Assembly (NCBI GenBank): GCA_963713925.1
Contig: OY970212.1
Coordinates: 384,001-448,000 of the forward strand
Source of the DNA: an uncultured bacterium
Lineage (GTDB): Bacteria > Babelota > Babeliae > Babelales > Vermiphilaceae
Reading direction: 5' to 3'
Length of the DNA stretch: 64,000 nucleotides
Positions 50,336 to 50,620 of the stretch are shown here, piece after piece. The notes beneath the pieces were generated by a model, which saw only the letters and a program-made list of their open reading frames with translations, was not told where the DNA came from and ran no database searches. The translations under genes were made by a program, and so were the position numbers. Within the stretch, counting starts at the first letter, position 1. Every line of letters begins with the position of its first letter.

Positions 50336-50422
50336 GCCGGGATGGCGAAATTGGTAGACGCACGGGACTCAAAATCCCGCGGTGGTAACACCATGTCGGT
50401 TCGAGTCCGACTCTCGGCACCA
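50336..50422 (+). tRNA. tRNA-Leu(CAA)
   Basis: GCCGGGATGGCGAAATTGGTAGACGC...CT-CAA-AA...GGTTCGAGTCC...ACCA. Confidence 0.96.
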
Positions 50423-50620
50423 GGCTTCGCCCATAAAGGGCTACGCCTGGCGCAGCCAGTAGCTGAGGTAGAACAATAATACTGATAGCATAAGTGTGAA
50501 GCCTGTCCTGCGAAGTTGAAATACTTCCTGAGGTTTAACTTCGAAGTGGGAACGTAGCATGGACTGGAATAGTTTGTTCCTAATACGCTACGCTTATCGG
50601 GGGCTTATTATCCAAGTTAC
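50423..50620 (+). repeat. Composite tRNA-trailing repeat, homologous to the tRNA-Ser(TGA) trailer
   Basis: The first 29 nt, GGCTTCGCCCATAAAGGGCTACGCCTGGC, are identical to the reverse complement of 20881-20909. Similarity continues for about 190 nt. Confidence 0.85.

Follow-up and report, generated by a model that had tools for sequence, protein, structure and literature searches.

ARAGORN found seven RNA genes in the 64-kb window, by which we mean the whole stretch of DNA analyzed here: six tRNAs and the tmRNA. A sequence-only reading of the window had proposed that five of these genes are followed, with zero gap, by a hairpin whose stem takes up their own CCA (Table 1). This is the case at four of them, while at tRNA-Ser(GCT) the stem takes up CA and the first C is mostly unpaired. 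The Ile and Ala tRNAs of the rRNA spacer are without a hairpin, as had been stated. The trailers of tRNA-Leu(CAA) and tRNA-Ser(TGA) begin with the same 31 nt, counted from the first C of CCA (50420-50450 on the forward strand and 20882-20912 on the reverse strand), and the near-identity described for tRNA-Arg(ACG) and tmRNA reflects a longer hairpin variant common to both. The trailer of tRNA-Ser(GCT) is simpler, as read before, with a plain 11-bp stem and a GCA loop. The similarity of the Leu and Ser(TGA) trailers had been put at about 190 nt, which is too long; good alignment covers only about 150 nt (81%), and past this stretch just a short piece of the third hairpin can be matched.

Table 1. 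RNA genes of the window and the hairpin elements found at their ends or elsewhere (positions are those of the window)
Feature	Position	Strand	Remarks
tRNA-Leu(CAA), host gene	50336..50422	+	
Hairpin A at Leu(CAA)	50420..50458	+	CCA-NN arm, TTC/TAC internal loop, inner stem, N'N'-TGG arm (50420-50450)
Terminal mini-palindrome closing hairpin A at Leu(CAA)	50448-50458	+	TGG-C-GCA-G-CCA
AT-rich spacer at Leu(CAA)	50459..50504	+	closes with a further near-perfect complement of A's first arm (50496-50505)
Hairpin B at Leu(CAA)	50505..50567	-	inverted copy of the loop-hairpin; purine-rich GAA/GTA loop on tRNA strand
Hairpin C at Leu(CAA), degenerate	50588..50664	+	type of the GIY-YIG gene's tail; another repeat nested within
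tRNA-Ser(TGA), host gene	20910..21001	-	
Ser(TGA) trailer	20565..20912	-	A 20882-20912 (identical to Leu), B 20759-20820, C 20708-20741, second B 20565-20659
tRNA-Arg(ACG), host gene	21149..21225	-	
Arg(ACG) hairpin	21097..21151	-	nearly identical to tail hairpin of the GIY-YIG gene at tRNA-Thr(CGT)
tRNA-Ser(GCT), host gene	21331..21423	-	
Ser(GCT) hairpin	21300..21333	-	simple, 11 bp, GCA loop, decayed terminal mini-palindrome
tmRNA, host gene	34031..34383	+	
tmRNA trailer	34381..34620	+	hairpin 34381-34436, B 34511-34570, C 34589-34620
52-nt unit copy	17616..17667	-	within a non-tRNA dispersed repeat (8 empty paralogues in genome)
Stand-alone copy, degenerate	about 17252..17306	+	away from tRNA

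The elements extend beyond the first hairpin (A), with an inverted second hairpin (B) and a third (C) at Leu, Ser(TGA), and tmRNA. Since hairpin B at tRNA-Leu(CAA) terminates in CTGG, A and B form a doublet with inverted CCAG termini. Two further copies in the window, overlooked in the earlier reading, are without a tRNA (the last two rows of Table 1). In three DNA sequencing runs, which were searched as contigs and give thin contig cover, the Leu trailer was unchanged and no excised or joined form was found, a result of little weight as to excision.

Unit A consists of CCA-NN, a 3x3 internal loop (C-TWC-G / C-TWC-G) around a variable inner stem, and N'N'-TGG, and downstream of the TGG arm there is a short C..G linker and a second CCA. 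The eight long trailers of the genome, which are 70-82% alike, are built of A, an AT-rich spacer, another stretch complementary to A's first arm, and an inverted B. The purine-rich internal loop that had been noted on the non-tRNA strand (GTA/GAA) is present there in A as GAA/GTA, GAA/GAA, or GTA/GTA, and B has its purine loop on the tRNA strand. Loops of the G-N-A/G-N-A type and C-GNA-G triloops are unusually stable in DNA. Energy folding of hairpin A as DNA gave -9.7 compared to -11.7 kcal/mol between the strands and the difference for B was not significant, so the two strands are not convincingly separated by these programs, which lack terms for sheared G-A motifs. The inner stem of unit A often houses other nested repeats. 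Another abundant hairpin family, starting TTACCCAA, is found nested inside copies of hairpins A and C, in tandem at 21596-21686 of the window (reverse strand), and at many sites of the genome.

Covariation was assessed in 58 distinct hairpins from the 184 CCA-ending genes in all fetched loci, a set that includes kin and is not independent. The base after CCA (G in 26, C in 20, T in 9, and A in 3) pairs with the base before TGG in 56 of the 58 hairpins, in four pair types, compared to a mean of 20.6 and a maximum of 32 in shuffled sets. Among the mismatches in the arm pairs, 13 of 16 are pyrimidine-pyrimidine on the tRNA strand and hence purine-purine on the opposite strand. The base at +1 recurs after the second CCA in 32 of the 58 hairpins (shuffle mean 18), and a 4-nt target duplication is therefore not clean.

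The genome (1.32 Mb, 40.8% G+C, one contig, 95.75% complete) has 39 RNA genes, 34 of them with an encoded CCA. It likely belongs to the Babeliales (Dependentiae), given that loci labeled Babeliales have trailers like these and that the phylum sample used below comprises one order. Using a strict motif derived from the tRNA-linked copies, the hairpin was found at 16 of 34 RNA-gene CCA ends compared to 14 of 4342 CCA sites in intergenic DNA and 1 of 29834 in coding DNA, and several of the 14 intergenic matches are nested or stand-alone copies. By eye, a hairpin is present at 22 of the 34 CCA-ending genes and absent at 12, and none of the five RNA genes without an encoded CCA carries one. Loop-hairpins number 34 in the whole genome and two to three in each of three Markov-5 controls. 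The trailers are not a chance occurrence. They show no replication-strand bias (16:6 for filled and 11:6 for empty genes), and no Rfam family matches them at gathering and E-value thresholds; an sX4 match arises from the tRNA part and was rejected as the identity of the trailers. The two findings that would have spoken against the sequence-only reading, a lack of enrichment at tRNA ends and a match to a described family, were thus not made.

Some tRNA ends of the genome are unusual in other ways. The tRNA-Arg(TCT) gene at G000:C1:36748-39400 (L149) has no encoded CCA, and 2.5 kb downstream of it there is a short Arg-like 3' end followed by CCA and hairpin A. The interval holds a 601-aa ORF, whose start we take to recall a Hint domain, and a 162-aa ORF, and an insertion has possibly displaced the end of the tRNA. 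At G000:C1:1052492 (reverse strand) and 610285 (forward strand), hairpin A stands at the CCA of a short tRNA-like end with no Rfam gene upstream; these are possibly decayed tRNA ends. Three clustered tRNA-Arg genes (TCG, and CCT twice) at G000:C1:703217-705351 are all without an encoded CCA.

Three unrelated dispersed repeats of the genome that are not tRNAs occur both with and without the unit. The first is empty in eight copies, has a 52-nt unit inside ACCA in four (one of them the window copy at 17616-17667), and has the unit 5 nt away in one. The second is a perfect palindrome, which, as counted with a stricter pattern, is uninterrupted in 17 copies and split in two by the 52-nt unit of the first repeat. 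It is found at G000:C1:1002591 and 18 other sites, and on the basis of these 17 uninterrupted and two interrupted copies, the palindrome within 17560-17730 of the window is part of a dispersed repeat family. The third is empty in 15 copies, a count that includes a variant with a 16-nt spacer, and is filled in eight with a related unit of at least 53 nt containing nested repeats; at C1:569210, an entire A+B doublet begins at the CCA of its left arm. The inserted unit carries its own 5' CCA, and at the third repeat the CCAG must come from the unit, since that strand of the empty allele lacks it. Junctions vary by 1-2 nt between the host repeats. One and the same unit is found in hosts that are unrelated, the filled state is the minority allele, and a palindrome is broken by it, all of which indicates insertion rather than deletion, and these filled and empty repeats, with a 52-53-nt unit bearing its own CCA, are strong evidence of insertion. 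The filled copies of each host repeat may represent a single event copied with the host, corresponding to about four to five events. The earlier claim that tRNA 3' ends are targeted stands as a strong preference and not as a strict rule, one host repeat having no CCA at the junction on that strand.

The statement that no mobilizing enzyme is encoded in the window holds for GIY-YIG and Y1/HUH proteins in profile searches. A co-occurring GIY-YIG gene, which the same reading had suggested looking for, is present elsewhere: PF01541 identifies five such genes in the genome and none in the window. One of them encodes an 80-residue SLX1-like protein (G000:C1:1102679-1102921, reverse strand; 64.7 bits, over the cut-off) and lies 161 nt behind tRNA-Thr(CGT) in a cassette with the order tRNA, A, spacer, B, gene, and tail hairpin, that is, with hairpins on both sides. 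The leader of this cassette is of the Leu/Ser type (79% identity with the Leu trailer across 154 nt) and the tail hairpin is of the type seen at Arg and tmRNA, so the trailers in the window resemble the cassette minus its gene. The alignment of the 80-residue family shows conserved Tyr, Arg, His, and Glu columns, which we take to be catalytic-type residues, and a structure model (pLDDT 96.8) has its best fold matches in UPF0213 and SLX1. NCBIfam holds no family for the protein, the phage collection searched contains no relative of it, and PADLOC gave only weak partial matches, which were disregarded. Its identity to a 94-aa hairpin-flanked GIY-YIG protein of the same genome is 31%. Three other small GIY-YIG genes (L002-L004, at G000:C1:353985, 141659, and 104377) are each bracketed by their own inverted hairpin pair, so that three separate hairpin/GIY-YIG pairs exist in one genome; at 104377, the hairpin corresponds to the left arm of a 27-copy repeat.

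Relatives of the 80-residue protein among GTDB genomes, of which the best 80 of 128 were examined, have 49-66% identity and come from Alphaproteobacteria, Bdellovibrionota, Patescibacteria, Lentisphaerota, and others. In 69 of these best 80 loci, a tRNA or tmRNA gene lies 62-540 nt upstream on the same strand, and almost all begin with the same hairpin; tRNA-Ala(GGC) loci of related alphaproteobacteria account for 35 of the 69. Among the relatives of the genome, 30 loci were fetched of 56 matches, and a same-strand RNA gene is found upstream in 20 of them, representing 16 kinds of RNA gene, while several of the remaining 10 begin at a decayed tRNA-like end. In the pooled set, a same-strand tRNA or tmRNA precedes the gene in 89 of 110 loci, with more than 20 RNA kinds and none upstream on the opposite strand. 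The gene is usually not bracketed: hairpins precede it in 62 of 105 loci and follow it in only 8 of 109. The simple hairpin of the Ser(GCT) type leads GIY-YIG genes in four relatives (L090, L105, L106, and L110). Up to nine copies of the gene occur per genome, and stops interrupt 8 of the 56 matches of the relatives.

Additionally, gene and hairpin occur together across a sample of 214 genomes of the phylum, which are kin, so that p-values are overstated. The exact 3' motif is present in 126 of 135 genomes with the gene compared to 29 of 79 without it (103 of 135 compared to 29 of 79 when one motif per gene copy is discounted), and a reversed control pattern gave five matches in the whole sample. 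The exceptions are 29 genomes with the motif and without the gene, and nine with the gene and without the exact motif. Leader type tracks nuclease clade modestly, the observed value being reached in 9 to 52 of 1000 shuffles (26 of 1000 for host RNA type), in a tree of 80 columns with 21 of 44 forks open. The separation of the tRNA-linked clade from the three other GIY-YIGs in this tree is in part built in, because similarity to the query decided which rows were included.

Some loci carry repeats of a different kind. Repeats of the tRNA 3' end of at least 8 nt are found in 6 of 89 loci, compared to 3 on the control strand. In L092, L105, and L083, a stretch of 19-21 nt from the 3' end of the host tRNA recurs near the GIY-YIG gene, and in the first two of these the repeat lies 41-61 nt past the gene and is followed by the hairpin again. 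Contigs C34 and C36 of G031 show the 3' motif in tandem with a period of ~130 nt, three in a row.

We consider it probable that the trailers derive from a hairpin element and lack its gene: the full form has the 80-residue GIY-YIG gene, placed behind a tRNA or tmRNA gene, and the product of this gene likely spreads the trailers into CCA ends. GIY-YIG nucleases cleave, and they are not known to ligate. The site recognized would be the G-N-A/G-N-A loop, the purine-rich counterpart of the pyrimidine loop on the other strand, at moments when the DNA is single-stranded and the element is expected to fold; the nuclease may nick beside this loop, by analogy with SsnA beside the NTS. Host repair could then place a copy of the 30-55-nt unit, or at times of the doublet or the entire cassette, in a stem end, with a CCA/TGG complementarity of 3-5 nt setting the junction. 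Insertion at a tRNA end does not damage the tRNA, because the unit begins with CCA, and transcription of the gene likely starts at the tRNA promoter.

Alternatively, the nuclease could be a domesticated partner that cuts hairpin-marked ssDNA for the host, with the hairpins multiplying by recombination, slippage, and gene conversion between tRNA loci. A host role of this kind, limiting the uptake of transforming DNA, is shown for SsnA in the part of PMC11893778 covered here, which shows no mobilizing role. The similarity of the eight long trailers is compatible with old conversion, and the 19-21-nt repeat of the tRNA 3' end in 3 of 89 loci and the tandem motif arrays of one genome fit this explanation as well. 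We nevertheless regard it as unlikely, considering the clean 52-53-nt insertions in three unrelated repeats without flanking homology, the position of the gene behind more than 20 RNA kinds, in up to nine copies and often broken, and the relatives of 49-66% identity in several phyla (best 80 of 128).

An element acting at the RNA level, whose hairpin hides the CCA of the precursor for 3' processing, protection, or termination and whose GIY-YIG protein cuts RNA, appears more unlikely still. The search for empty orthologous sites bears directly on this explanation: in 41 genomes, the 30 best Leu(CAA) loci divide into 16 that are filled, by hairpins of different types, and 14 that are empty (an encoded CCA is missing from one of the empty loci, and the downstream HIT gene from 5 of the 30). 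Genomes with and without the GIY-YIG gene stand at 14:2 among the filled loci and at 3:11 among the empty ones. The hairpin is dispensable for the tRNA, being absent from 14 of these 30 orthologues, and together with the 12 of 34 CCA-ending genes without a hairpin this disfavors selection for a 3'-processing structure, which had been offered as the alternative to spread. Copies also occur away from tRNAs, hairpin A has its conserved purine loop on the strand reading that is not transcribed, and SsnA does not bind RNA according to the covered part of PMC11893778. The strict zero-gap register with covarying arms and the purine loop that hairpin B presents on the transcript would suit an RNA, as would the predicted pairing of CCA in precursors, although the latter says little because it is also predicted in the hairpin-less Ala control. 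Termination would require a U-tract that the Leu locus lacks; no intrinsic terminator (GC stem and U-tract) was found in 50250-50720, and inspection of the other four loci by eye gave the same result.

SINE-like spread of retroposed tRNA trailers via an RNA copy is highly improbable. Processing of the 3' end would free a trailer RNA that starts exactly after CCA, and Penelope elements pair a GIY-YIG nuclease with a reverse transcriptase, but no PF00078 reverse transcriptase was found in the genome (95.75% complete) and the inserted units contain CCA itself. Least probable of all is a theta/HDV-type self-cleaving ribozyme freeing the tRNA 3' end, since the element sits directly after the tRNA 3' end like theta ribozymes but is a plain nested hairpin that incorporates CCA, matches no Rfam ribozyme, and has G at +1 in just 26 of 58 hairpins, whereas the theta cleavage site is G1 in the covered part of PMC10879173.

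The reading of the trailers as gene-less copies of a nuclease-linked element agrees with the REP-like gene-less family first proposed from the sequence, which is supported by the enrichment at tRNA 3' ends, the empty orthologous sites, the insertion junctions, and the linked GIY-YIG gene. We advance more tentatively, as possible but doubtful, that this is a class of minimal mobile DNA free of transposase, recombinase, and reverse transcriptase, in which the 80-residue SLX1-like nuclease alone drives the copying of the 30-55-nt hairpin unit and of its own gene into tRNA and tmRNA 3' ends by a CCA/TGG code, with host repair joining the ends. If true, this would assign a function to an 80-residue GIY-YIG family that is unannotated and very common (135 of 214 genomes of the phylum sample). 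It would also add a second clade, with a recognition hairpin of its own, to the sequence-specific ssDNA nucleases of the Ssn concept, and the spread of REP-like repeats would become testable where RAYT is absent. The filled and empty alleles would serve as ready substrates with predicted junctions.

Among known systems, integrase-driven islands exploit the 3' ends of tRNA genes as safe sites without disrupting the tRNA. The element described here does the same, but no integrase-sized ORF lies between the tRNA and the tail hairpin, its size is 30-450 nt, and a long 3'-end duplication is found in just 3 of 89 loci. The theta (HDV-like) ribozymes of phage tRNA 3' ends likewise start at the tRNA 3' end, as described in the covered part of PMC10879173; the element differs in having no fixed G1 and no evident double pseudoknot, in pairing with CCA, in its link to a nuclease, and in its location in bacterial chromosomes.

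A literature search found no description of a tRNA-end hairpin with a GIY-YIG gene; the supplements of PMC5737381 (224 candidate RNA motifs) and PMC11893778 lie outside this comparison and may bear on novelty. Prokaryotic Slx1-like genes are treated in PMC1564403, the covered part of which mentions no such tRNA-end context. The GIY-YIG protein SsnA (94 residues) binds the NTS hairpin in single-stranded DNA only, does so on one of the two strands, and cleaves a few bases to its 5' side (Chenal et al. 2025, PMC11893778). Its authors liken the system to IS200/605 and REP and suggest a selfish origin for Ssn, and mobility is not shown in the part of their paper covered here. The two systems share a single-domain GIY-YIG gene with a dispersed hairpin repeat and a patchy distribution across phyla (PMC11893778, covered part). 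The protein here has 80 residues compared to 94 for SsnA and is nearest UPF0213/SLX1 in fold and sequence. The five window trailers and the Thr(CGT) cassette all lack a match to the published degenerate SRM pattern, which has only three matches genome-wide and also missed the flanks of the 94-aa GIY-YIG gene; the identification of these flanks as SRM was set aside as a resemblance only. In the covered part of the paper, the Ssn gene is commonly flanked by hairpins on both sides, whereas here they are mostly upstream only, although the copy of this genome has both. The element is anchored at the CCA of tRNA and tmRNA, whereas the word tRNA is absent from the main text of PMC11893778, and insertion polymorphisms are seen for it.

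Finally, the element resembles REP, REPIN, and BIME sequences, being composed of dispersed extragenic palindromes of 20-40 nt that often form inverted doublets, with gene-less copies exceeding enzyme genes and nesting in other repeats (PMC3733652, covered part). Identity with one of the 28 families of that paper is possible. The partner here is a GIY-YIG protein and not an HUH/Y1 transposase; the suggested co-occurrence of RAYT/HUH genes was looked for, and the genome has only a 30-residue Y1_Tnp match, without these hairpins around it. REPs carry an unpaired GTAG or CGTC tag at one end; in the element, GTAG is present on the purine strand, within the 3x3 internal loop, and is GAAG in many copies. 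The element differs from REPs in its strong preference for tRNA ends. The closest known systems are thus the REPIN/RAYT and NTS/Ssn pairs, and the element works like either of them while departing from the defining features of both.
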